Origin: Candidatus Ozemobacteraceae bacterium
GTDB taxonomy: Bacteria; Muiribacteriota; Ozemobacteria; Ozemobacterales; Ozemobacteraceae
Assembly (NCBI GenBank): GCA_035388825.1
Contig: DAOOQQ010000016.1
Location: 12,334 to 76,333, forward strand
Reading direction: 5' to 3'
Length of the DNA stretch: 64,000 bases
Notes under the pieces: model-generated
Seen by the model: the letters and a program-made list of their open reading frames with translations, nothing else
Told to the model about the DNA's origin: nothing
The model's database searches: none
Translations under genes and position numbers: made by a program
In this document: positions 8,403-43,870 of the stretch, piece by piece
Numbering within the stretch: position 1 is the first letter of the stretch
Layout: each line of letters begins with the position of its first letter

Positions 8403-8415
8403 CCGGAATCACCAC

Positions 8416-8470: not shown

Positions 8471-8499
8471 GGTGTATCACTCAACGATCAGGGGATTCC

Positions 8500-25180: not shown

Positions 25181-25253
25181 GGGGCTGTAGCTCAGCTGGG
25201 AGAGCGCTACATTCGCATTGTAGAGGCCGTCGGTTCGATCCCGATCAGCTCCA
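25181..25253 (+). tRNA. tRNA-Ala (anticodon CGC)
   Basis: Cloverleaf folded by hand. Acceptor stem GGGGCTG/CAGCTCC has the G3:U70 Ala identity pair. D-arm is GCTCAGCTGGGAGAGC. Anticodon loop TTCGCAT. T-arm GGTTCGATCC. No encoded CCA. Confidence 0.85.
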
Positions 25254-25291
25254 CTGAAGGGCAATCCACGATTGCCCACAATTATCCGAGA

Positions 25292-25317
25292 AACCCGCTG
25301 ATAAAGCGGGTTTTTTG
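25292..25317 (+). terminator. Rho-independent terminator (CCCGCT-gataa-AGCGGG plus T6) after the tRNA
   Basis: Hairpin plus U-tract seen in the sequence. Confidence 0.7.
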
Positions 25318-25419
25318 CTTTTAACCGTCCCTAATCGTCCCGTATCGTTTTTGTAAATCCGGGGGTATCTGGGGGTATTGTTGGGGGTATCGACGTATAT
25401 TCGAAGGAGCGATACCCCC

Positions 25420-26643: not shown

Positions 26644-28475
26644 ATTATTCTCGTAGATATTTTCAAGATTCAATAAGGTGAGAACTTCTTGATGATCTTT
26701 GTCGAACAAGTGAAGTATTCGATGCCACACCCCATCGATTCTGATCTGCGTGGCGCGAATCGCGTCGAAAAGAGTCAGAATCGAGTTCCAGGTAGGGGCA
26801 TCCGTTCGCTTGTGGCCAAGGTAGGCTACAGTCCCGCCTCGCTTGCGCAGGGACTTCCGAAGATCTCGCTGTATCAGAGCCCCTGTCAGCAGCGCCAGAA
26901 GGAAAATGAACCCCATCGCCTGAATTCGTTCAGGGGTCTTCAAAAAGATCGGCCCCATCGCCATCGGGCCTTTCAGCCAGTGAAACCCGATCTCCACCGT
27001 TTTCTGCTCTTTGTAGAGTGCCAGCATCTGAACGTCAGACATCTTGCGCCTGTCGGTGACGGTCGTCAGCAGAACGAAAAAACCATCAGGATCCAGTCCT
27101 TCTGCGGAGGTCGAACCTTGGCCCGATACATTCAATCGCACTCGCCAGATGGGCGTGGATTTGGCAGAAGCCCCCTTGGCGGGGCGGCCGGGCCTTCGTT
27201 TTTCCGGCTTTTCATCCTGAATGATATCGAAGCTCATCGAATGATACTGGGCCTTGGTGGCTTTCCATTCATGAGACACTATTTTCCTGGCATCGGCCTC
27301 GCAGGCGAACTCGCGTGCCTCCAGCTTCTGTGCCCACGTTTTCAACCGTTCTTCTTCCTTCTTTCTGGCATGAAGCCGGCCAGCCGCTTTTTGTTTCGAC
27401 AGTTGAGAAGAGTAGACGGCCATCACCCGAAGCCACACCGAGCGGCCGGGCTTCCCCGGTTCCTCGATCAGCACGGGAATGTCCCAGCTTGCTCCACGAT
27501 ACTCCTCGCCCTCCTCGGTAGCTCCCAGGACGGGAAGATCCTTTTGTTTGCAGGCATGATCAATGGCTTCGGCGCGAAGATTCCATGTCTCCGGAATCAA
27601 AGTCAGAATGGGCATCTTCAGATCGGCTGCCTGCGCCATGGTTGCAATGGAGCAGAGCTTGGAATCTCCGATCATGACGGCCTCATCGGAGCGCAGATCT
27701 TCAAGCATTCCCGCCAACTGGACCATCTGCTTCCGAAACAGCTCGGGTTCGGCGGCATTTCCATTTTCAAAGTTGCCAATGAGCGGAACACCTTCTTCGG
27801 ACATGACCAGCCCCCAGACAAGCTGCAGCAAGTCTGGCCGATGATCCTTGCTGAAACCTCGTGCCGGAACTGGTGGCTGGGGCAGACCGGACAGGGGAGA
27901 CTCGGAGCCCGGGTAGGCCCCGTGCAATACGATACTGGTGAAATCCGCATGGAAGCGCTTGATCTTCAAGCCAAAGGTCTTGATCGCTGCGAAAATAACA
28001 GCGGCGTAGAGCCGAGCCGTGTTCCCATACAGCGCATCAAGCGACCAGCCCAGCCGATTATCGGTGAACTGGTCGGCGGTAAGCCCTGGATGCCGAAGAA
28101 GACCGGCAAGATCGATATCCTTCAGACGGTCGTCGACCTGGTAGAGCCGATGTTCCCTCAAAAACATAGCCAGAAGCATCGCGATAACGCTTTCCCCGTG
28201 CGAAACATGAGCCTGACCCGCGACGGGAAGTGCCTGATCGACGGTGTCCTTGATGTGCAGACGATCGAAGTAGGACATCAGCAGGGGAATCGCCCCGAGA
28301 TACTCCTGACGAGTTTCAGGGACCTGGGTGTTCGAAGCCATAGCCGCCTCCGCAGGATGGTGATGAAACCAGCCTACGGCAGAATCTCGGTTCGTACAAG
28401 TCCCTCTGAAAGCAGGATCAGAAGCCATCAAGAAAAATATCTCTCCTCAAAATCGGTACGTCGGGAAAGTGCGAT
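26605..28475 (-). mobile_element. IS1634-family (IS4 superfamily) insertion sequence, approximate boundaries
   Basis: Transposase ORF flanked by imperfect terminal inverted repeats CGCACTTTCCCGA (about 26605) and TCGGGAAAGTGCG (about 28463). The left end lies inside the 3' end of the integrase gene. Confidence 0.55.
26623..28341 (-). CDS. IS1634-family DDE transposase
   Basis: IS4/IS1634-type DDE region over its full length. GGAGG RBS before the ATG at 28341. Confidence 0.75.
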   Translation of the reverse strand: MASNTQVPETRQEYLGAIPLLMSYFDRLHIKDTVDQALPVAGQAHVSHGESVIAMLLAMFLREHRLYQVDDRLKDIDLAGLLRHPGLTADQFTDNRLGWSLDALYGNTARLYAAVIFAAIKTFGLKIKRFHADFTSIVLHGAYPGSESPLSGLPQPPVPARGFSKDHRPDLLQLVWGLVMSEEGVPLIGNFENGNAAEPELFRKQMVQLAGMLEDLRSDEAVMIGDSKLCSIATMAQAADLKMPILTLIPETWNLRAEAIDHACKQKDLPVLGATEEGEEYRGASWDIPVLIEEPGKPGRSVWLRVMAVYSSQLSKQKAAGRLHARKKEEERLKTWAQKLEAREFACEADARKIVSHEWKATKAQYHSMSFDIIQDEKPEKRRPGRPAKGASAKSTPIWRVRLNVSGQGSTSAEGLDPDGFFVLLTTVTDRRKMSDVQMLALYKEQKTVEIGFHWLKGPMAMGPIFLKTPERIQAMGFIFLLALLTGALIQRDLRKSLRKRGGTVAYLGHKRTDAPTWNSILTLFDAIRATQIRIDGVWHRILHLFDKDHQEVLTLLNLENIYENNSCHVYS

Positions 28476-29018
28476 CAAACTCGGTGTTGCTTAATAATTC
28501 AACCTAATGCCAAGCAAATACCGCCATCACTTTCATATTTTTTTAGTGCGTTCGCTATAAATTTTGAATAGACAGGACAAATGAATATTTCATATTAATA
28601 TTTTTTAAAGCCATGCGCCGTAATTTTTCAATAACTACGTCATATGCTTGGTAGCATATTATATTTGTATGAGGCTACAGTGCATTTTTTACGGCGCATC
28701 GCCGAAATTTTTATTCTAAATATTTTGTTTGACATACATATACCCAATCCGTTATACTGCGTTCGTTCCTGGACGAACTTTCATCTCTAACAGACCAGGA
28801 GCCCCCAAAAAAATGTCATGTGACGCCAGGTCGGGATTCACCTGGCCCGCCCCCTCGTTTTTGCTACCAACCACTAGCTGACACAGTCGTAACGAGCCCG
28901 CCAAAGCAGCGCCGATAACCCCCGGCAGTTTGGCGGGCTTCCTATCTTCCCCGCATGTGAATGGCGCTGAAAACGCGCCCTTGTTTTCATGGAACCTTTT
29001 CGTTCAAGGAGCAGCAGT

Positions 29019-29293: not shown

Positions 29294-29567
29294 TTATGCA
29301 ACCTTTTTTCTGTAAATTTCCTCTTCCGGTGTAAGTGAATGAATCGTCTCGACATCCAAATAGTGAGGACTATTTATCCAATCCTCGTGCGTTTCGATCA
29401 GAAGAGCTGCTATCAGCCTGATTGCCGACTCTTCGTTTGGAAATATCGAGACGACCCGCGTTCGTCTTCTGAGTTCACGGTTGAAGCGTTCGACGACGTT
29501 CGACGTTCGAAGCCGCTTCCAAAGCTTTCGGGGAAACGAAAAATACGTCAGGGCCTGGTCGATGTTG
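29294..29567 (-). pseudogene. IS256-family transposase C-terminal fragment
   Basis: …TSNVVERFNRELRRRTRVVSIFPNEESAIRLIAALLIETHEDW… matches the IS256 transposase C-terminus. Truncated by the IS3 element inserted at 29568. Confidence 0.7.
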
Positions 29568-29627
29568 TGAAGTGGACCCGGTTTGGTGGACACTTTTTCG
29601 CTTATGATTGAGAAGGAGGTGTCCCCC

Positions 29628-29942
29628 ATGCCCAAGACTCGCCCCCCATATCCACCGGAATTCCGCCAGCAGCTCGTAGACCTCGTTCTGGCCGGTCGGA
29701 GTCCAGAAGACCTGGCCAAGGAGTTCGAACCGTCGGCGGTGACGATTCGTAACTGGGTCGTCCAAGCCAAACGCGACGGAGCAAAGTCGCCATCGGGTCT
29801 GAGTTTGTCCGAGCGCGATGAGCTGACCCGGCTGCGACGTGAAAACAAGCGACTTCGCGTTGAACGAGATATCTTGTCAAAAGCAGCTGCCTGGTTCGCT
29901 CGGGAGACGAATTCGATCCCCGACAAATCTTCGAATTCGTAA
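29628..29942 (+). CDS. IS3-family transposase OrfA (HTH)
   Basis: PEFRQQLVDLV…leucine-zipper region typical of IS3 OrfA. GGAGG RBS. Confidence 0.8.
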   Translation: MPKTRPPYPPEFRQQLVDLVLAGRSPEDLAKEFEPSAVTIRNWVVQAKRDGAKSPSGLSLSERDELTRLRRENKRLRVERDILSKAAAWFARETNSIPDKSSNS

Positions 29943-29956
29943 AGGCGCACCAGGAA

Positions 29957-30787
29957 ATGTATCCGATCGCTACCATGTGTCGCCTGCTGCGCGTCTCCAC
30001 CAGCGGCTACTATGCGTGGATCAATCGCCCGCCTTCCGCTCGCTCTTTGCGCGATCATGAACTGACTGCTCGCATTTGTAAGATTCACGAGGGCTCTCGC
30101 GAGACCTATGGCCGACTGCGAATCCATGCGGAATTGATGACTGAAGGGACACGCATTGGCGGAAAACGTGTTGCTCGGCTGATGCGAGAAGCCGGCATCC
30201 AGGGGGTTACTCGTCGCAAGGCGTGTCGAACGACGATTCGAGGGCGCGCTCCGCACATGATTCCCGATCTCGTCGATCGGAAGTTTGTTGCAGACGGTCC
30301 CAATCGCCTTTGGGTCGCAGACATCACCTACATCCCCACTTGGGCAGGTTTTCTCTTCCTGGCAGTCGTTCTCGACGCCTTCTCCAGGAAGATCATCGGC
30401 TGGGCGATGGAGGGCAACTTGCGCACTGAACTCGTGTTGCAAGCTTTGAACATGGCTCTTCACCAACGCAGACCAACGGAGGTCGTTCATCATTCCGATC
30501 AAGGCTGCCAATACACCTCAATCGCCTTCGGAAATCGTTGCAAGGAAGCGGGTGTCCGCCCTTCAACGGGATCGGTCGGTGATTGCTTCGACAATGCGAT
30601 GTGCGAGAGTTTCTTCGCAACACTGGAGTGCGAACTTCTCGTACGCCGCCGGTTCAAGACGCAATCCGAAGCACGAATGGCCGTCTTCGAATTCATCGAA
30701 GGCTGGTATAATCCCAGAAGACGGCATTCCGGTTTGGACTATTGCTCCCCCGTGGAATACGAAAGACGGCACACACAGGCTGCATGA
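29957..30787 (+). CDS. IS3-family transposase OrfB (DDE integrase core). Probably made as an OrfAB fusion by -1 frameshift.
   Basis: …KAHQEMYPIATMCRLL… and the DDE(35)E core …HHSDQGCQYTS…NAMCESFF…. Confidence 0.8.
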   Translation: MYPIATMCRLLRVSTSGYYAWINRPPSARSLRDHELTARICKIHEGSRETYGRLRIHAELMTEGTRIGGKRVARLMREAGIQGVTRRKACRTTIRGRAPHMIPDLVDRKFVADGPNRLWVADITYIPTWAGFLFLAVVLDAFSRKIIGWAMEGNLRTELVLQALNMALHQRRPTEVVHHSDQGCQYTSIAFGNRCKEAGVRPSTGSVGDCFDNAMCESFFATLECELLVRRRFKTQSEARMAVFEFIEGWYNPRRRHSGLDYCSPVEYERRHTQAA

Positions 30788-30905
30788 TGACGAAAGTCCC
30801 GAACCGTCCACTAAACCGGGTCCACTTCAGACCACTGGTAATGAGGGTTAGCCTGGCGTGCGGATCCAATGCTCTGACCATCGGCGTAACCACCGCCCAT
30901 GCCTG

Positions 30906-31115
30906 TCACGCCATCACATCCTTAACAAGCCCTGGAACTGCCTGCCTTGTGACGGAAGGCTCCAGGGCGTTCTTGAACAATCGTTCGAGAAAGCCCATGC
31001 TATCTCCTTCTTGCATCCCAAGTGGCAATCGGGGTCGATACGAATCGATCACCCGTTCCAAGGGAATCATTTCGAGAACGTCAGGCGGAAGAGAGGAATT
31101 TCCCAGGATTCGCAG
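30906..31115 (-). pseudogene. IS256-family transposase internal fragment
   Basis: …PLGMQEGDSMGFLERLFKNALE…PGLVKDV resembles the central region of IS256 Tpase (…GFMIQSGESEETWTTFFEYLKERGL…VISDAHKGL). Out of phase with fragment 29294-29567. Confidence 0.45.
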
Positions 31116-34100
31116 AGAAGTTGCGATTTCCCGGCAGGATCTGTATCCTCGCGATGCCGGCGGACGATCGCGTGGCACTTTGCCTCGATGACATGTCGTC
31201 CATCCATTTTCTGCGGGAGGGATTCTGCCGCACGCTTCGACAAGTGGCAAACCTCGATGCCGTCGACGAATATCCCGTTGTTTTTCAGGTTGCCCGGGTG
31301 CTCGTAAGACATCGTATTCATGACCTGTGCAATCTGCTCATGGGCATTCGAACGACCGGCAAACGAGAGATAAACGTCAGACATGCCCATTTCCCAGACT
31401 CTGATGTCGGGAAGGTTGTCATGGATGCTTTCTGATCGGGTTTCCGTCTTCGTATGTGAAAATATTTCATGTGCAATACTTCCTGGCGCATCCGTGCCGA
31501 TGATGGAAAGGGCGTTTTGTGCGCGCGACATGGCGACGTATGCCACCCGATGGCTATCCGGGCCGGCCTTCAGGCCTTCCGGGACGACCACGACAGCCGG
31601 GAACTCCAGTCCCTTCGAGGCGTGCATCGTCGACAGGGTGATCCGGCCGGGCCGCTTCAACATTCCCATACGCTTCTCTCGGCTCACGTCATGCATGAAC
31701 GAAACGAACTGCGTCGGGCTCGGCGAGGCGGTTTCCTCGAGATAATCCTCCACGAGCTGATCGATCAATTCTTCCCACGGATTGCCCGCCCCACCCCTCG
31801 ATAACCGGCCCTGCCCGACCAGCTCACGAAATCCCGCCTGCCTCATTTCCCGCTCGGGCTGGCTCTCCATATATTGTATGAGATGATATATTTCGCGCAC
31901 GTTCAGCAGGGGAACTTCAGGCCGCCTGATGCAATGAGTCGCGAATCCACGGGTTTCGAGCAGATACTTCACCCTGAAAAGATCATCGTTTGCGAATGTA
32001 AGAATTGCAATGTCCTCAGGCGCAAACCCGTCCTTGCGAAGCCGCTCGACCTCGGCGAGAACCTCGCCAAACACCTGTGCAGGCCCGGCAACCCTGATGA
32101 CGGACGGACGGCGGCTGTTCTCAGGAACCAGCATCCCAGCTTTCGCCGAAACCAATTTCTCGTTTGCCTTCATGCGGCCGGGAAGCCGCCGGATGAACTC
32201 CTCGCAAAAACTGGTGATCGGCTCGGATGACCGGTAATTGGTCAGCAGGCGATGGACCGCGGGCTTGTAATCCGCTTCGAACCGCCGAATGAACTTCACG
32301 TCCGACCCTTTCCACTCGTAAATGTTCTGATCGTCGTCGCCGACCGCCAGAAGGCGCACTTCCCGTTCTGCATCGGGTTCGTCCTTGCGCGAAAGAAGGG
32401 CCAGCATCCGGTATTCGTCTTCGTCGATATCCTGGTATTCGTCGGCAAGAATGTACCGCACCCGGCTCAAAAGCCCTTCCGTCATGGAATCGCGGTCCTC
32501 GCCCGTCACCGACTCCAGGGCGCTCACGGCGTCTTTCATGATGGTCTTCATCAGGTCCTCGCGTCGCGTCGCCCTGTCCCCTCCGGCCTGAGCCGCCAGC
32601 GACCGGCTCGCGATGCGCAGGGCCAGGCCGTGGTAGGTGCTTACGAAAATGTACTGGCTGTCGTTGCCGAGCAGTTCGCGCAGGCGTTTGCGTATTTCGA
32701 GAACCGTCGAGCGGTTGAACGCGACCACGAGAACGCCGCCCCGAGGCACCCGCTCAACGCGCACAAGCCAGGCGGCACGATGAACCAGCGACTTCGTTTT
32801 CCCGCTTCCCGGCCCCGCCAAAATCAGAATGTTCCTCGTCTTGCCTTCGGTCACGATCGCCCGTTGCGCGTCCGACAGGGAATACTCAGGCCTGTGACCT
32901 TCCTGCAGCGCCTTCCCGGTAATCCTGGCGAGGCTTTCCTCGCCGGTCGGATACTGAAGCAGTTCCTTTCGCCGGTGGAAGTAGCGATCGTAGAACTCCT
33001 GCCGCGAGAGCGAGAAATACTCCTTCACCATCGTCATCGCGCTCCGGATGTCGCTTTTCCCGAACTCGGCATACTTCCCCATCACGTGCACCTGGGCGAT
33101 CTTCTCGTCGAAGAAATCATCGAGAGACCGGCACTCGCCGGCAGCCGGGGGGCGGTCATCCTTGAGTTTCAGCGTCAACGCAGGCCGGAACACCGAGAGC
33201 CCGTTCTGGATATGGAGCGCGTGCGTCTCGTTCAGCGACAGAAGCACCCTCCTGACGGCGTTGAAACTCTCGGACGACGTTCGCGGTGGGTCTTTCACCG
33301 GCAGGAGATTCTCGAGTTCGTCGACGGTGAACTCGACGCGTTGTTCCCGGCCCTGCCTGTTGCATCGTTTTCTGAGCAGGTCGAGATACCCACTGCCGAT
33401 CTTCTGGCGGTAGGGAATCATGCTCCGGATCTCCCCCGGGCTCATGCTCCGCTTCAGCCGGCAACGGTCATACCCCTGCGACACGAATGTCACAAGACCG
33501 TCGCGCCGCCAGATTTTCAGAACGGGGAACAGGTCTTTCGCTCGCACGTTCTCGAACGACCGGTCTGCGGAAAGCTGCGTCGCGCACAAGCGCAGGTCGA
33601 GTGTGCTGCCGTCCTCGTCCCCCCATGCCTCCGTTTCGGCAAGCATGTCGAGGATGCGGCTTTCGATACGGCAGAATGAATCCCAGCGGGACACGGCATC
33701 GTCCTTCTCGTCCGGCAGGTTGTTGAAAAGTGCCGTGCAGTTGATGGAGTGTGAAATCAGTCCGACGTTCCGCATCTCCCGCAGGGTCGAAATGAGATTC
33801 TCGGTCGACTGGCCGAGCTGGACGGTCATCGCGTCGGTGTTCAGCAGGTCATCGGCGTTCGCGTTGTAGAGGTGCCGGATAAGACGCCCCCACTGTGCCT
33901 GCCTGTATTCCGTCAAGCCAAGCTTTCGAATGATCTCCAGCGCGGCATCCAGGGTCGGCGGCACAGGCTTCGCCTCGATCACGGAGGTGCGGTTCCACGA
34001 GCGTTCGAGCCGGTTGAGCTTTTCGAGCCAGGAAATGGCGATCTTGACCTTGGTGTCTGCCATCGGTTCCGATGCATCGATTTTATCGGTGGTGGTCTCT

Positions 34101-36163
34101 TCGTCCCTGAGGATCTCGCCCGTCGTCCGGACGATCTCGCCGCGCCCCGGGCCGGCTTTCTGCTTGCGCGCGAGGTTCCGAATTCCCCGGAAGATGCCGA
34201 TCAGATCGCCGTGCGCGATGCGGCTCGACATGCACAGCTGGAATTGGAACTCGATATCATCGGCTGAAAAGATGAGGTGGCAGTCAGCCTTTTCCTGGTC
34301 TCGCCCAGCCCTGCCGGCCTCCTGGAGATAGTTTTCGAGGGAACCTGGAATCTCGGTGTGGATCACCACCCGGACGTCGGGCTTGTCGACGCCCATGCCG
34401 AAAGCGTTCGTGGCGCACATCACCCGGAGACGGCCGGCCAGGAACTCCTCCTGCACACGCCGCTTGTCGTCGGGGGTGCGGCCCGCGTGAAAGAAGTCGG
34501 CCTTAAACCCCGATGCCTGAAGTTTCTTGGCGAGGTTTTCGGCCGCCTTGCGTTTTGCGGTGAACAGGATCGCGCCGCCCCCGTCTCGGAGCCCCTCTTT
34601 CAGGATCTCGATGGCAAGCCCGATCTTGTTGTATCCGTCCGGGTTCGCGTCGCGGCCGTTCATCGTGTCGAGCCCGTGAACATGGAACCGGAGATTCTTC
34701 CGATCGGCCGTGCCGATGAACAGGTGCATCTCTTTGCCGGCCTCCTGTCGGAAATAGGTGCGTATCTCCTCGATCACGTCGAGCTTCGCCGTGGCGGTGA
34801 AGCAGGCAATCGGCGGCAGGGAGGCGGTTTCCCCGAGCACCTCCTTCAGGAACGAGCACAGGAACAGGTAGTCGGGCCGGAAATCGTGGCCCCATTTCGA
34901 CAGGCAGTGCGCCTCGTCGACGACGACAAGGCCGATCTCCCGCTGGGAAAGGGTGTCGCGGAACGAGCGGTTGCGCATCTGCTCGGGGGCGACCCACAGG
35001 ATGTCGATATCGCCGAGGGCGACTTTTTCGTGGGTCTCTGCCCGCTCGAAGACGGAAAGCAGGCCGTTGAGCGCCCCGACGTTCGGGATGCCGCGCCGTG
35101 CGAGGGCGTCGACCTGGTCTTTCATCAGCGATTGGAGCGGCGAGATGATGAGGGTCAGCAGGTTTCTCTGCCGCGCCTGCATCAGTGCGGGAAGCTGGTA
35201 ACAGAGCGACTTGCCGCCGCCGGTCGGCAGGACGACGAGGCAGTCCCGGCCTTCGAGGATCGCTTCGACGACATCCTGCTGGGAAACGGGCGGCGGCCCT
35301 TCGAGAACGGGCCTGAATGCGTCGAAGGGGTGAAAAAACCGCTTGAGCGACTCGAGGGGTGAATGATACTCCCGGCAATACTCGCATGTACCGCACGGCC
35401 TGCGCCGAAGGGCATGAAGGATCTCGACGGCCCGGGGAAACGCATGGACCACCCACGGAGCGAGTCGCGACATGCCGTCTGCGACGGAAAGCCAGGCAAG
35501 CGCCATCGCAAGGGCGATCCACTCCGGCCGGCGCCCGCCGCCGGTGTCGAAAAGTTCTTCAAGGGCTTTCCGGCAGGCTTTTCCGGAAAAGGTCTCGCGC
35601 GCCTGGCGGAACGTCTCGTCAAGGTCCAGGGGCTTCGCCCCGGTTTCACGGGCGATGGCCGCAGCGCAACCGCGTGTCACGTCATCCTGGCCAAGCAGAC
35701 ACAGATACAGCGGCAGAAGCGGGTCGGCGCGGAACTGCCCGAGCTGTTCCCGAAAAAGGGCGAGCGCCGCCTCGGAATCGCGCAGCGGGTCGTTCCGGCT
35801 CGATTCGGTCGGCTTGTATCCTTTCCATAGTTTATGATATGGGTGCCGCGGCCAGGCCAGCGGCGACAGGAGGAGCGTATCGATGACCGGGAGTTTCAGC
35901 AGGGCATGATCGGGAGCATGTCGTTTCAGCCACTCGAGATCATGCGCCAGGACATTGTGCCCGAGGACGAACCCCGAATCGCGGCCATATATCTCGAGGC
36001 TTTTCAAGACAACCCGCGGATCGTTCCACGGCCCCGTCTCCCTGAACGCCTGCTGTCCCTCCCGAAACGCCCCCGCCGCCAGCAATGTCCCCGAGACAGG
36101 ATGCACCTCGAGATCGACCGCCACGATTCCGTCGAATATGCTCGCCAACTCGTTTCTCATCAC
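31067..36163 (-). CDS. Giant multidomain DNA enzyme: N-terminal DEDDh 3'-5' exonuclease, then a RecQ-family SF2 helicase, then a UvrD/Rep-like SF1 helicase (1698 aa)
   Basis: VAVDLE…HNVLAHD exo motifs. Zn-ribbon RRRPCGTCEYC. RecQ motifs LVVLPTGGGKSLCYQLPAL, VVVDEAHCLSKWGHDFRPDY and QEAGRAGRD. UvrD motifs ILILAGPGSGKTK, ILADEYQD, VGDDDQNIYEWKG, TMHASKGLEF and VAMSRAQ. Confidence 0.8.
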   Translation of the reverse strand: MMRNELASIFDGIVAVDLEVHPVSGTLLAAGAFREGQQAFRETGPWNDPRVVLKSLEIYGRDSGFVLGHNVLAHDLEWLKRHAPDHALLKLPVIDTLLLSPLAWPRHPYHKLWKGYKPTESSRNDPLRDSEAALALFREQLGQFRADPLLPLYLCLLGQDDVTRGCAAAIARETGAKPLDLDETFRQARETFSGKACRKALEELFDTGGGRRPEWIALAMALAWLSVADGMSRLAPWVVHAFPRAVEILHALRRRPCGTCEYCREYHSPLESLKRFFHPFDAFRPVLEGPPPVSQQDVVEAILEGRDCLVVLPTGGGKSLCYQLPALMQARQRNLLTLIISPLQSLMKDQVDALARRGIPNVGALNGLLSVFERAETHEKVALGDIDILWVAPEQMRNRSFRDTLSQREIGLVVVDEAHCLSKWGHDFRPDYLFLCSFLKEVLGETASLPPIACFTATAKLDVIEEIRTYFRQEAGKEMHLFIGTADRKNLRFHVHGLDTMNGRDANPDGYNKIGLAIEILKEGLRDGGGAILFTAKRKAAENLAKKLQASGFKADFFHAGRTPDDKRRVQEEFLAGRLRVMCATNAFGMGVDKPDVRVVIHTEIPGSLENYLQEAGRAGRDQEKADCHLIFSADDIEFQFQLCMSSRIAHGDLIGIFRGIRNLARKQKAGPGRGEIVRTTGEILRDEETTTDKIDASEPMADTKVKIAISWLEKLNRLERSWNRTSVIEAKPVPPTLDAALEIIRKLGLTEYRQAQWGRLIRHLYNANADDLLNTDAMTVQLGQSTENLISTLREMRNVGLISHSINCTALFNNLPDEKDDAVSRWDSFCRIESRILDMLAETEAWGDEDGSTLDLRLCATQLSADRSFENVRAKDLFPVLKIWRRDGLVTFVSQGYDRCRLKRSMSPGEIRSMIPYRQKIGSGYLDLLRKRCNRQGREQRVEFTVDELENLLPVKDPPRTSSESFNAVRRVLLSLNETHALHIQNGLSVFRPALTLKLKDDRPPAAGECRSLDDFFDEKIAQVHVMGKYAEFGKSDIRSAMTMVKEYFSLSRQEFYDRYFHRRKELLQYPTGEESLARITGKALQEGHRPEYSLSDAQRAIVTEGKTRNILILAGPGSGKTKSLVHRAAWLVRVERVPRGGVLVVAFNRSTVLEIRKRLRELLGNDSQYIFVSTYHGLALRIASRSLAAQAGGDRATRREDLMKTIMKDAVSALESVTGEDRDSMTEGLLSRVRYILADEYQDIDEDEYRMLALLSRKDEPDAEREVRLLAVGDDDQNIYEWKGSDVKFIRRFEADYKPAVHRLLTNYRSSEPITSFCEEFIRRLPGRMKANEKLVSAKAGMLVPENSRRPSVIRVAGPAQVFGEVLAEVERLRKDGFAPEDIAILTFANDDLFRVKYLLETRGFATHCIRRPEVPLLNVREIYHLIQYMESQPEREMRQAGFRELVGQGRLSRGGAGNPWEELIDQLVEDYLEETASPSPTQFVSFMHDVSREKRMGMLKRPGRITLSTMHASKGLEFPAVVVVPEGLKAGPDSHRVAYVAMSRAQNALSIIGTDAPGSIAHEIFSHTKTETRSESIHDNLPDIRVWEMGMSDVYLSFAGRSNAHEQIAQVMNTMSYEHPGNLKNNGIFVDGIEVCHLSKRAAESLPQKMDGRHVIEAKCHAIVRRHREDTDPAGKSQLLCESWEIPLFRLTFSK

Positions 36164-36549
36164 ATCCGCAGCAAATGACCGTATTTACTTCTCGCCGTCG
36201 GCATCACAGCCTGGCTCTGAAATATGCATGTGTGTTATATATTTCTTTTGTTTTATATTCGGACCTGACTCTATCAAATCGCTTTTTCGAGGCCGAAAAA
36301 GTATCTACTTTATCGAGTATTGTATAACGATATATCATAAACCGTCGACACCTATGTTCTTTCGTTGGAACAGAACGATGGCCTCCATGAATTCCAGCCT
36401 CTCTGACGGCATAATCCCCTACGTCAGGAAGGAAAAAACAATGATCAGCCAGGAATATGATTTCGGCGCAATAAAATACAAATCGTTGTATCGGATGAGT
36501 TGCACGCCATTTTGGAAAGGTAGCAAACGTGATATGGTATGATAGATTG

Positions 36550-36709
36550 ATTGGATTTACCGGAAGCCCTTCAAAAGCAGGTTCTTGATTACGTCAGGCA
36601 GTTGCGTGTTCACCCCCGGCCGGGCGACCGGGGCGATCAGATGCTCAGGTTTGCCGACATGTTCACTTCCGAAGAGGGAGCTGACATTCTGAATTGTATC
36701 GAAGCATGA
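36550..36709 (+). CDS. Small antitoxin-like ORF with TTG start
   Basis: …DLPEALQKQVLDYVRQLR… resembles the small helical antitoxins found upstream of PIN toxins. Followed 16 nt later by a PIN C-terminal fragment. Confidence 0.3.
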
Positions 36710-36725
36710 TGCGGACGGATAGATC

Positions 36726-36870
36726 ATGACCAATTACGGTGAGGTGAAGGCTGCACTGCAAAGTCTTGGAAAGCTGATTCTCGAAAACGATCAGTTGATC
36801 GCCGCACTAGCTCTACAACATAATCTCACCCTCATGTCTAGCGACACTCATTTTGCATTTATCCTGGGAC
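36726..36870 (+). pseudogene. VapC/PIN-domain toxin C-terminal remnant (about 45 aa of PIN; N-terminal about 85 aa missing)
   Basis: …ENDQLIAALALQHNLTLMSSDTHFAF… matches the PIN C-terminal motif (…D…IAATA…LTLVT.N…F). Confidence 0.4.
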
Positions 36871-37062
36871 TTATCATTGTTACTATATTCGTCACACATT
36901 GGAACCTGATAATGTGGGGGCTCTCTCTCATGCAAAGGACTCACGATTTCTCACCCCACAATGCCGGGCGTACACAGATACAGCGGACCGCCGTTGGCGC
37001 TACCCGGAGGCCGCTGCTCTGTAGCGTTAGGTGGCGAGGGTTTCCAGAAAGGAAATTTTAAA

Positions 37063-39786
37063 ATGACAAAGAAGAACATTATCTGGAGTGAGATTCAAAG
37101 AAGGGCAATGGCCTTCGTAAAACGGTGGGCGGGAGAGACTGACGAGCAGCGTGAATCTCAAACGTTCTGGAATGAATTTTTTGGGATTTTTGATGTCGAT
37201 CGGCGCGAGGTCGCAAGGTTTGAAGACAGAGCAAAGCGCCATTCAACCGGAAAAAAGGGCCGTCTTGATTTGTTCTGGCCCAAGGTGATAGCTGTCGAGC
37301 AAAAGTCAAAGGGTAAAGATCTTGATGACGCTGAATGGCAACTATCCGATTATGAATTCGATCGCCATATGACCCCTGAATTGTTTGTAGTGTCTGACTT
37401 CAACCAATTTCGCATATGGAACTTAGAAACCGGGGACCGCTATACATTTACAATTACAGAACTTCCAAAATACACTACCTTATTTGCACATTTGGCAGGC
37501 TACAAACACGAATCTTTCAAACATGAAGAGAAAGTAAGTCGAGAGGCTGCCGAATTACTGGGGCAACTATTTGAGTATCTTGACGATAACGGGTACAGCG
37601 GTCATCCATTAAGAGTATTTATCGTTCGCCTTCTCTTCTGCGTTTTTGCTGATGACACTAATGTTTGGAGACGAGGTCTTTTTGATGACTTTATTACTTA
37701 CCGCACATCGGAAGATGGATCAGATGTCGGTCCTCAGCTAAATCTTCTCTTTCAGGTATTAAACCAAAATGAGGAAAGTCGGCAAAAGAATCTTGACGAA
37801 GATCTAGCAGCCTTTCCCTATATAAACGGCGGGCTTTTCTCTGAAAATATTCCTATCCCGTTCTTTGACACGAAGGCGCGCTCTCTGTTGCTTCAGGCGT
37901 CGAGTTTTGATTGGACACCAGTTTCCCCGATTATTTTTGGGAGCTTGTTCCAAAGTGTAAAAGATAAAGAGGCTCGAAGAACAACAGGGGAACACTATAC
38001 ATCTGAGGCAAACATTCTCCGAGTAATTAAGCCACTATTCTTAGATAAGCTTGAAGCTGAGCTTAACTCAATAAAAAGAAATAATGCCGAGCTAATAGAA
38101 TTTCATCAGAAGTTGTCTCAAATAAAGGTCCTTGATCCCGCTTGTGGGTGTGGTAACTTTCTCGCTGTTGCCTATCGGGAACTCAGGCGACTGGAAACGC
38201 GAACATTGCTTCTTTTGCACTCGAAAAACGGGAAAATCCAAAGGGTGCTAAACATAGCCAACCTTGTCAAGGTTTCTGTAAGCCAATTCTTTGGCATAGA
38301 AATAGCAGAATTTCCAGCCCGAATTGCAGAAACAGCCATGTATCTGGTTGATCATCTTGAAAACCTTGAACTCTCAGCGAAGTTTGGCCAGTATTTTGTT
38401 CGATTTCCAATTACCACTGAAGCACACATAAAAATCGGCAATGCGTTACGGTTAGATTGGAACTCAGTCGTTCCTGCCGAGGAAGTTTCCTATGTTACCG
38501 GAAATCCTCCATTTGGAGGACATCGTTATCGGACCGAAGAGCAATCCGAAGATTTAAGGATTGTCTGGGGAAGCGGGTATAACAAGCTTCTAGACTATGT
38601 AACTGGGTGGTACAAAGTTGCTTCTATGTATGGAAAGGAGAAAGAAATCCGTTTTGCTTTTGTTTCAACGAATTCCATCTCCCAAGGTGAACAAGTTGAA
38701 CATCTTTGGGAATCACTCTATTCTGATGGTTTTCACTTGGACTATGCTTACACCCCTTTTGTTTGGACGACAGAGGCAAAAGGAAAGGCGCATGTACACG
38801 TTGTAATTGAGGGATTTGTCCATGGTGATACAAATCGACAGAACTTACTTTACTCCTTAGACTCCTCTTCAGACGTTTGGAAAACTCTAAGCGTGCCTTC
38901 TATTAGTCCGTATTTGGTGGCTGGCCCGGAGATGGTTGTAAAAAAGCACCAACAACCTTTGTCCGCCCTTTTGCCCCCAGCGGCTTACGGAAGCCTTCCA
39001 GCCGATGGTGGTGGTCTGGTTGTTCATCCAGAGGATCTATCCCAAATCGATGAACCAGTAAAGAAGTATCTTAAACGTTTTATAGGGTCAAAGGAGCTAA
39101 TCAATGGGATTGACCGATGGTGTCTTTGGATGCCGGAAGGGCCGACTCCCTCTGAACTCAAAAATTCACCATTTCTAAAGGCGCGTTTTCTGACTGTACG
39201 ACAATTTCGAGAGAAAAGCCCCAACCTTGATACTAAGGAACTTTCTGCACAACCGTATAGATTCTTTCACATCGCAAAACCTAGATCCGAGTACATTGCT
39301 GTTCCCGCTCAGGTTGCCAACAAACGGCCCTGGTATACGGTCGAATTTTTGGGTCCAGAAACCATTCCCTCAAATACCCTCTATTACATAGATGATCCTA
39401 CTGGTTTGGTTTTTGGATTGCTTTCATCAAGCATGTACATGGCTTGGCAGAGAGCAATTGGCGGAAGAATTAAATCTGATCCGCGATTTGGAAAGGCCGT
39501 TTACCACTCCTTTCCTTTTCCTTCAATGTTATCAAACGAAGCAATCGAAAAGGTTAAGGAAGCGGGAAAGGGCCTACTTAAAGCTCGCAAGGCTTCAAAT
39601 AGAAGATCTCTATCGGAAATGTATGAAGCCGATTGCATCCACCCAGAGATATTAAAGGCACACATCGAGTTGGACAGGGCCGTTGACACCATATTCAACG
39701 CAAATAAGAAACACTGGACAGACGAGGAACGTCTAGCTGTCTTACTTTTGCGCTACGAAGAATATCAATCGAATAAACAAGATTGA
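37063..39786 (+). CDS. MmeI-family Type IIL restriction-modification enzyme (single-chain endonuclease plus N6-adenine methyltransferase)
   Basis: Collinear similarity to MmeI over the whole length: DLFWP…E(x)K nuclease motif, HYTSEANILRVIKPLFLD, LDPACGCGNFL, GNPPFGG and the C-terminal target-recognition domain. Low-GC gene. Confidence 0.85.
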   Translation: MTKKNIIWSEIQRRAMAFVKRWAGETDEQRESQTFWNEFFGIFDVDRREVARFEDRAKRHSTGKKGRLDLFWPKVIAVEQKSKGKDLDDAEWQLSDYEFDRHMTPELFVVSDFNQFRIWNLETGDRYTFTITELPKYTTLFAHLAGYKHESFKHEEKVSREAAELLGQLFEYLDDNGYSGHPLRVFIVRLLFCVFADDTNVWRRGLFDDFITYRTSEDGSDVGPQLNLLFQVLNQNEESRQKNLDEDLAAFPYINGGLFSENIPIPFFDTKARSLLLQASSFDWTPVSPIIFGSLFQSVKDKEARRTTGEHYTSEANILRVIKPLFLDKLEAELNSIKRNNAELIEFHQKLSQIKVLDPACGCGNFLAVAYRELRRLETRTLLLLHSKNGKIQRVLNIANLVKVSVSQFFGIEIAEFPARIAETAMYLVDHLENLELSAKFGQYFVRFPITTEAHIKIGNALRLDWNSVVPAEEVSYVTGNPPFGGHRYRTEEQSEDLRIVWGSGYNKLLDYVTGWYKVASMYGKEKEIRFAFVSTNSISQGEQVEHLWESLYSDGFHLDYAYTPFVWTTEAKGKAHVHVVIEGFVHGDTNRQNLLYSLDSSSDVWKTLSVPSISPYLVAGPEMVVKKHQQPLSALLPPAAYGSLPADGGGLVVHPEDLSQIDEPVKKYLKRFIGSKELINGIDRWCLWMPEGPTPSELKNSPFLKARFLTVRQFREKSPNLDTKELSAQPYRFFHIAKPRSEYIAVPAQVANKRPWYTVEFLGPETIPSNTLYYIDDPTGLVFGLLSSSMYMAWQRAIGGRIKSDPRFGKAVYHSFPFPSMLSNEAIEKVKEAGKGLLKARKASNRRSLSEMYEADCIHPEILKAHIELDRAVDTIFNANKKHWTDEERLAVLLLRYEEYQSNKQD

Positions 39787-40211
39787 TTTAAATGCCAACT
39801 AATAGGGCAAAGGGAAACTTTAACAGCCCGCGGATAAAGCTTAATGCTATTGTCACGCACTCTATAATATAGTATTATTTTTACCTTCTCCATCTTTTGG
39901 ATTTTTTCGATGGCATTGGAAAAGCGGAAGTAAGCAACTGTCAAGAAACCCGAACATTTTCGAATGTCACGGAACCGGGAAACCAGGGCCACACACCTAA
40001 TTTTCATTTTAGCTTCCCGTAATGCATCTCAATGAACGGCACTCCATGATTGAATATGGCGTTGATGAGTTGCTCATTATACTTGTTGCCAACAAATGAA
40101 CCCTGCGTCTGTCGCATGAAGCGACATAATGAGTAATCGACTGCCACACTGAAGAGCCAACGGCTACTTCTATTCTGAGGGCAATATCGCTTGCATTGAT
40201 CTTCTGGTTTC

Positions 40212-41324
40212 ATGTATGGTGATCTCTATATGAATGATCACCCGTGTGCCGATGAACAATTGAAAGATGAAATGCGTAGTGGCATCATACGGCTCTTGGC
40301 GGATCTACGGCAGCCGGGGGCCTGCGAACTGCTTGCCATGCTTGAAAAGCAGATCGGTTGGCGCGTGCGGCAGTATTTTTTCGAGGTCGTCGGAGCGTTT
40401 CGGGATGACCACCTTCTGACGAGCTACCAACGGGAGTATTTCCGAACCACCCTCACCGACAAGGAGTGCATTGATGCGCTTCATGGCGGGGGGCGGCGGT
40501 GGGATGAATCCCGGAGCACGATCGACGAGCTTTTTCAGTGCGGCAAAGCGTATCGTTCATCAAAAGCCTTTCAGGAGATGATCACGTTCTCGGCCCAGTT
40601 CAGGAATTACGCCCCCTACAACAACATGCTGGTGAAGCTCCAGAATCCGTCGTGCAGCTTCTACGCAACGCGCGATGACTGGGAACGCCGGTTCAATCGC
40701 AGGGTCAATGAAGAGGCGCGAGCGATGCTGATTCTCGCTCCCATGCATCCCGTCATGCTGGTGTATGACCTCGATTCGACCACGGGCCCCGCCCTTCCGG
40801 AGAAACTGCTGGATTTCACGAGGGTCGACGGTCGCTTCGATCAAAAGCTGCTTCCCCGGTTGCTCGACAACTGTCTTCGGGATTCCATCGTCGTTGAGTT
40901 CGTCGAGCTTTCGTCCACGTTTGGCGGTTACGCAACGACACGTTGCCGAGGCACCGGCGCAAAGATGAGGGTCGCCATCCATGACAAGCTGCAGCCCGCC
41001 TCTCGCTTCTCGGTTCTCTGCCACGAACTCGCCCATATCTATCTCGGGCATCTGGGCTCGGACGAAGACAACTTCTGGCCGACCCGCATCAACCTGACGC
41101 ACGCGGCGATTGAAGTCGAGGCCGAAGCGACGGCTTACATCGTCTGTGTACGGCTCGGCCTCAAACCCTGTTCTGAAGCGTATATCTGCAGTTATATCGA
41201 AAACGATTCGATTCCGGCGGGCGTCAGCATCGAACTGATCACGAAGGTCGCCGGCAAGCTCGAAGAGATGGCAACCCGGCGCCTTCCGGCCCGCAAAGAG
41301 AAACCGCCCAAAAAAGCCCGTTGA
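40212..41324 (+). CDS. Zincin-like metallopeptidase (HExxH; ImmA/IrrE- or ArdC-like) with long N-terminal extension
   Basis: HELAHIYLGH motif near the C-terminus. The central region has an ArdC-N/DUF1738-like pattern (weak). Start could also be 40230. Confidence 0.5.
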   Translation: MYGDLYMNDHPCADEQLKDEMRSGIIRLLADLRQPGACELLAMLEKQIGWRVRQYFFEVVGAFRDDHLLTSYQREYFRTTLTDKECIDALHGGGRRWDESRSTIDELFQCGKAYRSSKAFQEMITFSAQFRNYAPYNNMLVKLQNPSCSFYATRDDWERRFNRRVNEEARAMLILAPMHPVMLVYDLDSTTGPALPEKLLDFTRVDGRFDQKLLPRLLDNCLRDSIVVEFVELSSTFGGYATTRCRGTGAKMRVAIHDKLQPASRFSVLCHELAHIYLGHLGSDEDNFWPTRINLTHAAIEVEAEATAYIVCVRLGLKPCSEAYICSYIENDSIPAGVSIELITKVAGKLEEMATRRLPARKEKPPKKAR

Positions 41325-41391: not shown

Positions 41392-42072
41392 TCAGATGAC
41401 AAGTTCAAGGAAGTCGCCGGTCGTGAAGAAACCTTTTCGGAGGCCGGTGAACGCCCAGTAGCAGAAATCTTCGGAGTTCGCCATGATGCAATGCGTTCCA
41501 AGAGCTGCTTTGATACGGTTTTTGATGGTGTCGGGTGATGATATTTTCGGAGGCGGCTCGACCGGGACGAGATTCTTCTCGGAATGGCCTTCCTGCTGGG
41601 CAAGCCTCATGAACTCGGAATAACTCAGCTCGCAGACGGTGTCGCGGGCCCGCGTGTTCCCGGGCTGGCCGATCGTGACGAACGTGTACCGGCATCCCGA
41701 GTCATGGCGGCACAGGATTGCATACGGGTTCCTGGAGCCGAGAAACGCTCCGTTGTCGAAGCAGACCATCAGGTGATCGGTTCCGGGCGTCATGTGCAGC
41801 CCGGCGAACGCGGCGGCGCGGATGTTTCCCGAACACTGCTCGCCGGCGGTCTCGAGGTCAGCTTTCAGTTTTTGTATGGTGGCCAATACATTTTCGCGGC
41901 TCTCCTCCCCATCCTGGTCATCTTTTTTCTTCTTCGTCCACTTCATCCCGGTGCGGCTGACGGCGGGCTGTTCATCCTCAACCACGGATACGGCGGTCTT
42001 TTTTTTTTTTATACGCGATTTCCTCCGATGCAGTTTGAATTGGGCACAGGATGAACATAGCCGCGGTTTCAT
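41392..42072 (-). CDS. Hypothetical protein (start may be the internal ATG at 41946)
   Basis: ORF only. Lys-rich N-terminal region encoded across an A12/T12 homopolymer. No domain recognised. Confidence 0.35.
   Translation of the reverse strand: MKPRLCSSCAQFKLHRRKSRIKKKKTAVSVVEDEQPAVSRTGMKWTKKKKDDQDGEESRENVLATIQKLKADLETAGEQCSGNIRAAAFAGLHMTPGTDHLMVCFDNGAFLGSRNPYAILCRHDSGCRYTFVTIGQPGNTRARDTVCELSYSEFMRLAQQEGHSEKNLVPVEPPPKISSPDTIKNRIKAALGTHCIMANSEDFCYWAFTGLRKGFFTTGDFLELVI
41999..42010. repeat. T12 homopolymeric tract (A12 on the minus strand) in the 5' region or leader of ORF 41392-42072
   Basis: A run of 12 consecutive T read directly. A striking outlier in a high-GC genome. Confidence 0.8.
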
Positions 42073-42160: not shown

Positions 42161-43042
42161 ATGACGATGGATGTCAGGCTGTTGCGATATTTTCACGCCG
42201 TTGCGCGCCTGAAAAGCTTTTCGAAAGCGGCTGACGCGCTGTCCATTTCCCAGCCCGCGCTCAGCCAGGGGGTGAAGAATCTCGAAAAGGAGCTTCACTG
42301 CAGTCTCTTCATTCGTGGCAAAACCCTCCAGGTGACCGACGAGGGGGAAAAGTTATTTTCGCATTGCGAGGAATTGTTCCGGGTCCTTGAAAATATCGTT
42401 GACGATATAAGCAACACGAAGAGTCCCAGGAAGGGAACCATCAGGGTCGGGGTCCTCGAGAGCGTCCTTCTCTACTGGATGCCGGCCATTCTCGGCGACT
42501 ACTTCACGAAGTATCCGAACGTGTCGGCCGCGTTCGAGAAGTCTGAGACCGTGGCGATCGAAAGCGGCGTGCTCGATGACAAACTCCATCTCGGAATCAT
42601 TTCCCGGCCGTCTTTTTCACGCAAGCTCGAAGATATCGAGCTTGCTTCGTTCTCGCACAAACTCGTCGTTTCGAGCGAGTTCAGCGAAGACCTTCCCGGC
42701 CTCGCGAAGCATCTTCCCCTCTTTCTCCTGGGGAACTGGCAGGAACGGGCGCTGACCTCGGGAACGGATCTTTTTGCCCGCGTTCCCGCCCTTCGGACGC
42801 TCAATCCGACCAACTGCGCGGTCCTGGTCCGCCAGATCGTCGCGAACAAGCTGGGAATGGCCGTTCTGCCTGCGTATCTCGCAGGCCCCGATCTTCGCGT
42901 GATCGAAGACTACCCCCTGCTGAAGATGGGTTTGTACCTGATCCGCCGGAAGAATCGGCGGCAGAATCCTCTCGTCAACCAGTTCGCCGACTTCGTCTGC
43001 GAATGGCAGGCACGTTCGGCATTGATATCATCGCTAGACTGA
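42161..43042 (+). CDS. LysR-family transcriptional regulator
   Basis: N-terminal LysR HTH (LRYFHAVARLKSFSKAADALSISQPALSQ). C-terminal substrate-binding domain. Confidence 0.8.
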   Translation: MTMDVRLLRYFHAVARLKSFSKAADALSISQPALSQGVKNLEKELHCSLFIRGKTLQVTDEGEKLFSHCEELFRVLENIVDDISNTKSPRKGTIRVGVLESVLLYWMPAILGDYFTKYPNVSAAFEKSETVAIESGVLDDKLHLGIISRPSFSRKLEDIELASFSHKLVVSSEFSEDLPGLAKHLPLFLLGNWQERALTSGTDLFARVPALRTLNPTNCAVLVRQIVANKLGMAVLPAYLAGPDLRVIEDYPLLKMGLYLIRRKNRRQNPLVNQFADFVCEWQARSALISSLD

Positions 43043-43642: not shown

Positions 43643-43870
43643 GCCCCGGAAGGATAGAGCGCTTCAGAACGTCACCTGGCAACCACGACACCTCTTGTCA
43701 TAGTCAGTGATATAGGATTCACCGGAATTCTGTCGGTCTGATGCTCCGCACCTGAAGTTTCGGTCCGTTTAGGCGACGCACACATCATCCCAGTCATTCT
43801 TTTCGCGACCGGCGGTTTCATCATGAAGCCGGTCATCGTTCGACGCGCGACGGAAACGAACGGAGGAACC

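Follow-up and report, generated by a model that had tools for sequence, protein, structure and literature searches.

Dual-motor helicase-nucleases such as RecBCD and AddAB degrade linear foreign DNA, restriction fragments included, and WRN, a eukaryotic RecQ helicase of the DEDDy type, keeps the RQC and HRDC domains. The restriction-modification (RM) enzymes of the MmeI family are self-sufficient single polypeptides, built of an N-terminal nuclease, a helical spacer, a gamma-class N6-adenine methyltransferase, a target recognition domain and a C-terminal domain, which cleave about 20/18 nucleotides (nt) from an asymmetric site and methylate one strand. In Staphylococcus aureus, crosslink repair requires DinG (SaDinG), a nuclease-helicase whose two activities are coordinated (PMC12345164), and Hna is a 3'-5' exonuclease of single-stranded DNA that is gated by its ATPase and triggered by the single-stranded DNA-binding protein of a phage (PMC13381803). 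All of these systems bear on a locus in a 64,000-nt stretch from a Candidatus Ozemobacteraceae (Riflebacteria) bacterium (contig DAOOQQ010000016.1; the whole stretch is hereafter called the window), in which a gene for a 1698-amino-acid (aa) protein, joining an exonuclease-like domain, a RecQ-type superfamily 2 (SF2) motor and a UvrD-type superfamily 1 (SF1) motor in one chain, lies divergently to a gene for an MmeI homolog. The original prediction, made from the letters of the window, took this combination to be unusual and the two genes to form a functional pair. We find instead that the 1698-aa protein belongs to a large conserved family with no obligate partner gene, and that it is probably a helicase-nuclease protein of defence islands with an architecture that was not found described in the literature searched.

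The giant helicase gene and its family

Throughout, coordinates are positions in the window, and residues follow the 1698-aa numbering of the helicase protein or, for the MmeI homolog, its 907-aa numbering. Open reading frames (ORFs) were screened with the models of Pfam, NCBIfam and PADLOC-DB v2.0.0, and tRNA genes were located with ARAGORN. Translation confirms the single unbroken minus-strand ORF of 1698 codons (31067..36163), which opens with a GTG at 36163; an ATG one codon inside, at 36160, gives the 1697-aa protein of the NCBI call. Could such a long frame be an artefact of assembly or sequencing in which three genes have been joined by mistake, the worry raised together with the original prediction? 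The identical 1697-aa product, with the same flanks, is encoded on contigs of four other samples or assemblies, a further intact copy, 95.6% identical, occurs in yet another sample (strain L094), and over 100 homologs with matching length and order of domains are spread across phyla. No support for the artefact was found, the only split copies being those of Nostoc plasmids, broken by frameshifts or by an insertion sequence (IS). The identical copies on independent assemblies and the co-linear homologs refute a false fusion, and the ORF is a genuine member of its family.

How unusual, then, is the combination? The best 120 database homologs, whose sources include Riflebacteria, Desulfovibrionales, Methylobacter, Pelobacter and Syntrophobacteraceae, are all 1673-1814 aa long and carry the same Pfam set, and a species-level scan, with one genome per species, located co-linear copies in Pseudomonas, Rhodobacterales, Verrucomicrobia, Bacteroidota, Clostridia, Eggerthellaceae, Dehalococcoidia and Acidobacteriota. 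When a profile of the N-terminal module was run against 1.84 billion cluster representatives to size the family, it matched 1,746 of them at E<=1e-3, of which 492 also pass E<=1e-30; roughly one in two of the 150 best matches is full length, the others resembling fragments truncated by contig ends. With so many co-linear homologs of equal length across phyla, the fusion is therefore not the rarity it was thought to be, being a large conserved family rather than an oddity. Its members, stand-alone proteins of about 1,700 aa, are widespread and experimentally uncharacterised. They are labelled in databases merely as 'RecQ family ATP-dependent DNA helicase', and literature searches for an exonuclease-RecQ-UvrD fusion or for a tandem bacterial helicase returned no description.

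Domain anatomy of the protein

Neither Pfam nor the sequences of the PDB gave a significant match to the N-terminal, middle or C-terminal region, and the first two of these were resolved by structure prediction alone (Table 1). The original prediction had placed a DnaQ-like exonuclease with a zinc ribbon at the N-terminus. The first 150 residues indeed adopt the RNase H-like DnaQ fold in the predicted structure, and when residue invariance was scored in 19 and in 44 diverse family members, the four acidic residues of a DEDD site (D17, E19, D75 and D129) proved invariant in both sets; GHN68-70, DTL95-97 and PYH108-110 are invariant as well. On motif pattern and an alignment of ExoII, the four acidic residues would be assigned to ExoI, ExoII and ExoIII. 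However, the position of the general-base histidine of DEDDh enzymes (H-x4-D), assigned by motif spacing, is occupied by Asn124 in at least 90% of members (NDPxxD), and Pfam RNase_T finds no match. The invariant Tyr109-His110, 19-20 residues upstream, might replace the missing histidine. The zinc ribbon did not hold up either: the invariant Cys4 site is set in a helical module and is therefore not a classical, two-knuckle ribbon. Structurally, the 291-residue N-terminal model is closest to SaDinG, to which 225 residues align.

The RecQ core, which had been called complete, is so only as far as its motor goes. Pfam DEAD and Helicase_C delimit a two-lobe SF2 motor at residues 295-622, its motifs (PTGGGKS 313-319, DEAH 416-419, TATA 456-459 and QEAGRAGRD 614-622) are invariant in the family alignment, and the score against TIGR00614 recQ_fam, 290.9 bits with a cutoff of 219.8, identifies it as a RecQ-family member. 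The RecQ equivalog TIGR01389, by contrast, reaches 333 where 640 is required, in an alignment limited to profile positions 17-344 of 591, and neither RecQ_Zn_bind nor RQC nor HRDC has a Pfam match at E<=0.01 anywhere in the 1698-aa protein; to judge from its sequence, the RecQ part is a two-lobe motor alone, devoid of the C-terminal region of bacterial RecQ proper. Structure prediction of the regions between the motors, proposed as a check of the original prediction, places after the SF2 core a winged-helix-like array (residues 651-1090) that differs from the RecQ C-terminal region.

A UvrD-type SF1 core was correctly foreseen and spans about 460 aa (residues 1097-1555; Pfam and NCBIfam), with the motifs GPGSGKT 1117-1123, DEYQD 1241-1245, GDDDQ 1275-1279 and VAMSRA 1543-1548. 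Its scores for Pfam UvrD-helicase (120.6 bits, cutoff 23) and UvrD_C (58.6, cutoff 25.6) identify an SF1A core, and a compact one, given that UvrD_C is matched only in its last third (profile positions 240-346 of 350). Orthology with UvrD, PcrA, Rep or helicase IV, full-length proteins with a 2B subdomain, is not supported, the equivalog scores being 99-143 bits against cutoffs of 543-1168; indeed, neither motor core attains any equivalog cutoff. Across the 44 diverse members the catalytic motifs of both motors are invariant. The small C-terminal domain has no Pfam or PDB match and no detectable relatives.

No PADLOC defence model spans the protein from end to end. Matches are confined to the RecQ core (DpdF, 2.4e-109; PsyrT, 2.1e-79) or to the UvrD core (GajB, 3.2e-39). 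Membership of DpdF or PsyrT was rejected, as the core alone matches and the score for the NCBIfam DpdF equivalog, 188, falls short of its cutoff of 550; identity with Hna was checked and likewise rejected because its architecture differs.

Genomic neighbourhoods of the homologs

Inspection of the neighbourhoods of homologs, another check proposed with the original prediction, yielded a divided answer: at 31 other full-length loci no MmeI-like gene lies within 10 kb, whereas other RM and defence genes are often adjacent. The tightest apparent operon link among the loci is that of Tritonibacter scottomollicae (locus L012), where a gene for a 1963-aa Hhe-like protein (3954..9845 of that locus; domains DUF4011, AAA_11/12, MTES_1575 nuclease and DUF3320) overlaps the start of the fusion homolog (9842..15532) by 4 bases. 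Directly upstream of the homolog stands McrBC in one Bacteroidales metagenome-assembled genome (MAG), and a Fic gene lies upstream in another; a HEPN-DUF499 gene is upstream in a Methylophosphatis MAG, and HsdR and HsdM follow directly downstream in Desertivirga. On the Allochromatium plasmid pALVIN01 the homolog is flanked by a full Type I RM system and an HNH gene. The Pseudodesulfovibrio copy shares its island with an integrase, IS elements, ERF, CobT/DUF3150/AAA_5, and DUF499 plus a methyltransferase, and the Desulfonatronum copy is ringed by three toxin-antitoxin pairs and RM fragments. Plasmids of Nostoc carry copies that appear to be decaying: on pNPUN02 of Nostoc punctiforme (locus L088, 6824..11842) the family member, frameshifted and split into three annotated genes, lies beside an N6-methyltransferase and a helicase, and on a plasmid of Nostoc sp. 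ATCC 53789 (H20) it is interrupted by an IS1634 transposase. Plasmid or chromid records with a full-length copy number 25; some of these carriers are conjugative, and most of the plasmids are typed as large non-mobilizable replicons; among phage records no full-length copy was found.

As a control for this association with defence genes, the 106 genes within two genes of the fusion at 31 loci (at most four per locus) were scanned with PADLOC at E<=1e-10, and so were 106 neighbours of ordinary RecQ-like genes. The former match 113 PADLOC families and the latter 4, a crude comparison in that families rather than proteins are counted and many of the models are redundant. We take the enrichment of homologs in defence or mobile regions to be real, albeit unquantified.

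The adjacent MmeI homolog and the question of pairing

The plus-strand neighbour of the helicase gene is, as predicted, a full-length MmeI homolog. Its longest ORF is 36961..39786, yet the ATG at 37063 is preceded by an AAGGA ribosome-binding site, NCBI calls a protein of 907 aa and the PADLOC match does not set in before residue 41 of that ORF; 37063 is therefore the likely start and 36164..37062, about 0.9 kb as had been stated, the spacer. All five Pfam domains occur in order and score above the cutoff of 27 (MmeI_N, 105 bits; MmeI_hel, 84.6; MmeI_Mtase, 275.2; MmeI_TRD, 166.5; MmeI_C, 48.9), and PADLOC REase_MTase_IIG aligns over positions 4-911 of 912 (E=4.6e-299), which establishes the MmeI-family architecture. 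The catalytic motifs are in place, namely D69-x9-E79-x-K81 of the nuclease and motifs I (DPACG 358) and IV (NPPF 481) of the methyltransferase, so far as motifs can tell of an enzyme that looks intact. With its nearest database homolog about 56% identical within a very large family, it is an ordinary new member of Type IIL.

Does the helicase act as the dedicated partner of this enzyme, degrading the DNA that it has cut, as the original prediction proposed? In favour of such a partnership, the genes are adjacent and divergent here as well as in the four other assemblies from this population, and homologs elsewhere often neighbour other RM systems. However, no MmeI homolog lies within 10 kb of the fusion at any of the 31 other full-length loci, and a tblastn search with the MmeI homolog against all 80 related loci returned a single match, a copy of the same locus. 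Nor does any other gene take the place of a conserved partner: all-against-all clustering of ORFs of >=80 aa from 32 full-length loci, and of ORFs of 30-200 aa within 1.5 kb of the fusion, revealed none that is shared. The closest homolog (66% identity) has a gene for SBP_bac_5, an ABC-transporter binding protein, upstream instead. MmeI-family enzymes, moreover, need no partner, and all domains of one are present here.

Composition tells the two genes apart as well. The claim that both have a low GC content fails for the helicase gene, whose 61% (59-65% along the gene; 0.76 at third codon positions, GC3) is near the 63-66% of the core genome and about 17 points above the 44% of the MmeI gene; only the block 36200..40100, comprising spacer and MmeI, has a GC content of 40-48%, with an abrupt drop at 36200. 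In the spacer a decayed remnant of a PIN gene is discernible, the match covering the first ~45 residues (about 36741..36857) of a 111-aa ORF and profile positions 82-115 of 120, that is the C-terminal third of the domain. Just upstream of it, at 36553..36708 (+), lies a short peptide, LDLPEALQKQVLDYV..., that has the look of an antitoxin fragment and no Pfam match; together the two look like the remnant of a decayed toxin-antitoxin pair. Flanking repeats were sought around the low-GC block, with nothing convincing found within the window. Because of the sharp GC step, the PIN remnant in the spacer and the mere 56% identity of its nearest homolog, the MmeI gene is seen to have been acquired separately, its adjacency to the helicase gene being specific to this population.

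The 95.6%-identical copy in strain L094 makes the same point from the side of the helicase. Homology between the two strains is confined to 31038..36407, which exceeds the helicase gene by 245 bp on the upstream side and by 29 bp on the downstream side, and the genes downstream are unrelated. Where the window has the spacer and MmeI, L094 has the terminus of an IS3 element (its positions 1..41) 254 bp upstream of the helicase gene; the same IS lies downstream of the gene in the window, which suggests IS-mediated rearrangement around it. The helicase gene with some 245 bp upstream is therefore a self-contained unit and moves as such. The stretch 36164..36407 is probably its promoter region, with a promoter-like site on the minus strand at 36348..36319.

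Proposed function and competing explanations

If the helicase protein is inherited on its own, what does it do? That it is a stand-alone, defence-type helicase-exonuclease, a single-gene candidate, seems to us about an even bet. Acting alone, the 1698-aa protein would be driven by ATP. Recognition of an end, nick, gap or branched intermediate in DNA would fall to the winged helices together with the C-terminal domain; both motors, their catalytic motifs intact, would unwind or reel in the DNA, leaving the freed 3' strand to digestion by the N-terminal domain, with the net effect that invading phage or plasmid DNA would be destroyed or stalled. Any benefit drawn from ends made by restriction would be generic, not specific to MmeI. 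The features underlying this proposal are a DEDD fold with conserved ligands, two motors with intact motifs, the winged-helix array, stand-alone inheritance and a context of islands, plasmids and defence genes, and we infer from them that the protein acts on DNA ends, nicks, gaps or branched intermediates, mainly against invading DNA. The GmrSD/HEC-05, PDC-S10 and IetA-like AAA+ genes of the island in the window fit such a context as well. The original prediction had also allowed for a module acting independently against phages or plasmids; this part gains support from neighbours such as Type I RM, McrBC, Hhe, HEPN-DUF499 and Fic genes and from the plasmid copies. A more elaborate version, which we offer only tentatively, is that of a new single-gene anti-phage or anti-plasmid system in which a WRN-like DEDD-exonuclease/RecQ unit is joined via the winged-helix array to a UvrD-type motor. 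Both motors would work on invading ends, nicks or replication intermediates and an atypical DEDD site lacking His would break down the 3' strand, making the protein a RecBCD-like 'finisher' that travels with defence islands. Its placement beside Type I, Type IIL, McrBC and DUF499-type systems would reflect generic synergy, because the protein would process their breaks.

Several points weigh against the putative role in defence. Since the canonical histidine is an asparagine in at least 90% of members, nuclease activity is not assured. Typical polarity would make both motors 3'-5', and the chain as a whole is matched by none of the PADLOC models. Owing to the redundancy of these models, the contrast with ordinary RecQ genes shrinks when proteins are counted, to about a dozen or more versus no more than six. 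The neighbours at many homolog loci are plainly housekeeping genes (Hsp70, tRNA synthetase, thiamine genes, ABC transporter), and the family seems to be stably kept in some genera (Methylobacter, Desulfonatronum), which also fits repair. The main rival is a genome-maintenance exonuclease-helicase that, like SaDinG and WRN, would repair crosslinks, gaps and stalled forks in the host or in accessory replicons, its presence in islands being incidental. We regard it as a serious contender that is nevertheless rather doubtful. On its side are, besides those housekeeping neighbours and the retention of the gene by several congeneric species, the classical standing of RecQ and UvrD as repair motors, a GC content of the gene near that of the host, and the fact that the best structural match of 225 N-terminal residues belongs to a nuclease-helicase of crosslink repair (PMC12345164). 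It is harder to reconcile with the patchy occurrence of the family across phyla, on plasmids and in integrase/IS islands, with a position directly beside diverse RM or defence genes that is far commoner than for ordinary RecQ genes, with the pseudogenised split copies of the Nostoc plasmids and with a context that differs between 95.6%-identical strains.

Alternatively, the protein might serve its carrier element, assisting in the establishment, replication or restriction evasion of an island or plasmid, for instance by processing incoming single-stranded DNA or by clearing host nucleoprotein blocks, with no part in host defence. The 25 plasmid and chromid records, some of them conjugative, would fit this idea, as would the tRNA/integrase islands here and in Pseudodesulfovibrio, the latter copy lying beside CobT/DUF3150/AAA_5 and ERF genes typical of mobile elements. 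Yet most plasmid carriers are non-mobilizable, many chromosomal loci are without mobile-element genes, no phage record carries the gene and no link to a conserved transfer or replication gene emerged, so that service to the element is unlikely. The dedicated partnership with MmeI is, in the light of the preceding section, very improbable, and the false fusion of three genes has next to no probability.

The surrounding genomic island

The helicase and MmeI genes lie in a mosaic island of at least 39 kb and ~41-67% GC (Table 1). The GC content falls from ~65% to ~55% at its left border, where the tRNA-Ala gene (25181..25254) is followed by the integrase gene (25378..26643); nothing convincing was found within the window for a right border, sought as a second copy of the tRNA-Ala 3' end or an att-like repeat. 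The horizontal acquisition that had been proposed holds for the region as a whole, on the evidence of the tRNA-Ala/integrase island and the IS elements, but low GC cannot serve as its sign for the helicase gene. The IS3-family element has 29-nt terminal inverted repeats at 29563-29591 and 30806-30834.

Table 1. Features of the locus, with the domains of the 1698-aa protein
Feature	Position	Strand	Basis
tRNA-Ala(CGC) followed by P4-type tyrosine integrase, left border of the island	25181..26643	+	ARAGORN; Pfam Arm-DNA-bind_3, Phage_int_M, Phage_integrase
IS3-family element downstream of the helicase gene	29566..30831	+	Pfam HTH_Tnp_1, rve
Exonuclease-like/RecQ/winged-helix/UvrD gene	31067..36163	-	ORF list, translation, Pfam, NCBIfam
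Residues 1559-1698, small C-terminal domain	31070..31489	-	Alignment; four conserved positions only
Residues 1091-1558, compact UvrD-like SF1 motor	31490..32893	-	Pfam UvrD-helicase, AAA_19, UvrD_C
Residues 651-1090, array of winged-helix-like units	32894..34213	-	Structure prediction
Residues 291-650, RecQ-family SF2 motor	34214..35293	-	Pfam DEAD and Helicase_C, TIGR00614
Residues 151-290, helical module with invariant Cys4 (C197, C257, C260, C263)	35294..35713	-	Conserved Cys, structure prediction
Residues 1-150, DnaQ-fold (DEDD) 3'-5' exonuclease-like domain	35714..36163	-	Structure prediction only
Low-GC segment travelling with the helicase gene	36164..36407		95.6% identity with strain L094, where the IS3 end follows
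111-aa ORF, apparent decayed PIN (VapC-type) toxin remnant	36726..37061	+	Pfam PIN E=8.7e-5
MmeI-family Type IIL/IIG RM enzyme, 907 aa	37063..39786	+	Five MmeI Pfam domains, PADLOC REase_MTase_IIG

Other genes of the island deserve a brief mention. Just after the integrase, an IS1634-like transposase gene (DUF4277 and DDE_Tnp_1; 26623..28431, -) is opposed on the other strand by an equally long ORF (26689..28494) that matches no family. Directly after the MmeI block come a gene with an M78/IrrE-like peptidase domain (weak Pfam match; 40212..41324, +) and a LysR regulator (42161..43042, +). Two tandem genes for AAA+ ATPases of ~750 aa each and one for a calcineurin-like phosphoesterase occupy 43823..48938 (+), preceded closely by a 97-aa ORF with a weak FokI_D3 match; the AAA domains resemble PADLOC IetA and TRIP13, the phosphoesterase matches the candidate PDC-S10, and the cluster may be a further defence module. 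A gene of 42% GC at 52922..54664 (+), with a GmrSD_N (DUF262) domain and matches to PADLOC HEC-05 and PDC-M55C, likely encodes a modification-dependent restriction enzyme. A 721-aa protein (60086..62251, -), whose sole match is a DnaB N-terminal-like domain, may be a replication or primase-helicase protein of the island. Five further ORFs (41392..42072, 49680..50372, 55286..56194, 57260..57985 and 58722..59969) match no family. Before the island, a 386-aa ORF of 74% GC without a Pfam match (23868..25028, -) lies just ahead of the tRNA-Ala gene, and a patch of 36-46% GC with two small ORFs (16690..17441, +), surrounded by core sequence of ~60-65% GC, may be a small insertion.

Significance of the family

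Should the stand-alone defence role prove true, a widespread module would be added to the anti-phage catalogue, one that comprises hundreds of clusters at 50% identity in Pseudomonadota, Desulfobacterota, Bacteroidota, Bacillota, Cyanobacteria, Riflebacteria and other phyla; the idea is easy to test because only a single gene is involved. For helicase enzymology, the family offers a natural single chain with SF2 and SF1 motors and an exonuclease, a bacterial analogue of the exonuclease-RecQ arrangement of WRN, from which the coordination of two motors of nominally equal polarity could be learnt. As regards annotation, the current database label masks a distinct family with an undetected N-terminal domain of nuclease fold. 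The MmeI homolog is of routine interest, with a possible new specificity for REBASE.

Comparison with known systems

Of the two proteins at this locus, the 907-aa product of the neighbouring gene is the easier to place, sharing with MmeI the five Pfam domains in order and the D-x9-ExK and NPPF motifs. For the fusion, the closest likeness is to S. aureus DinG (PDB 9ii8), in which an N-terminal DEDDh exonuclease is likewise joined to an SF2 helicase. The motor of DinG, however, is XPD-like, with 5'-3' polarity, whereas that of the family is RecQ-like; DinG has no second SF1 motor, winged-helix array or Cys4 module of the family type, and its exonuclease can be recognised as DEDDh from sequence, unlike the family domain with its asparagine at the histidine position and no Pfam match. 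WRN, too, combines an N-terminal DEDD exonuclease with a RecQ motor, but the bacterial family is without RQC and HRDC and has an added UvrD-type motor, and there is no evidence that the two fusions share a common descent.

Among defence systems, Hna, Nhi, Hhe, Hachiman HamAB and Gabija GajAB resemble the family in uniting a helicase-type ATPase with a nuclease in a stand-alone or minimal system of defence islands; they differ from it in using PD-(D/E)XK, Vsr/MTES or TOPRIM nucleases and a single motor, where the family has a DEDD fold and two motors. The UvrD-like core is also distantly related to RecB and AddA, although, unlike for RecBCD, there is no evidence of Chi-like regulation in the family. 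RecBCD itself is a multi-subunit machine whose SF1A and SF1B motors are of opposite polarity and whose nuclease is of the PD-(D/E)XK type, whereas the fusion brings an SF2 motor, an SF1 motor and a DEDD fold together in one chain.

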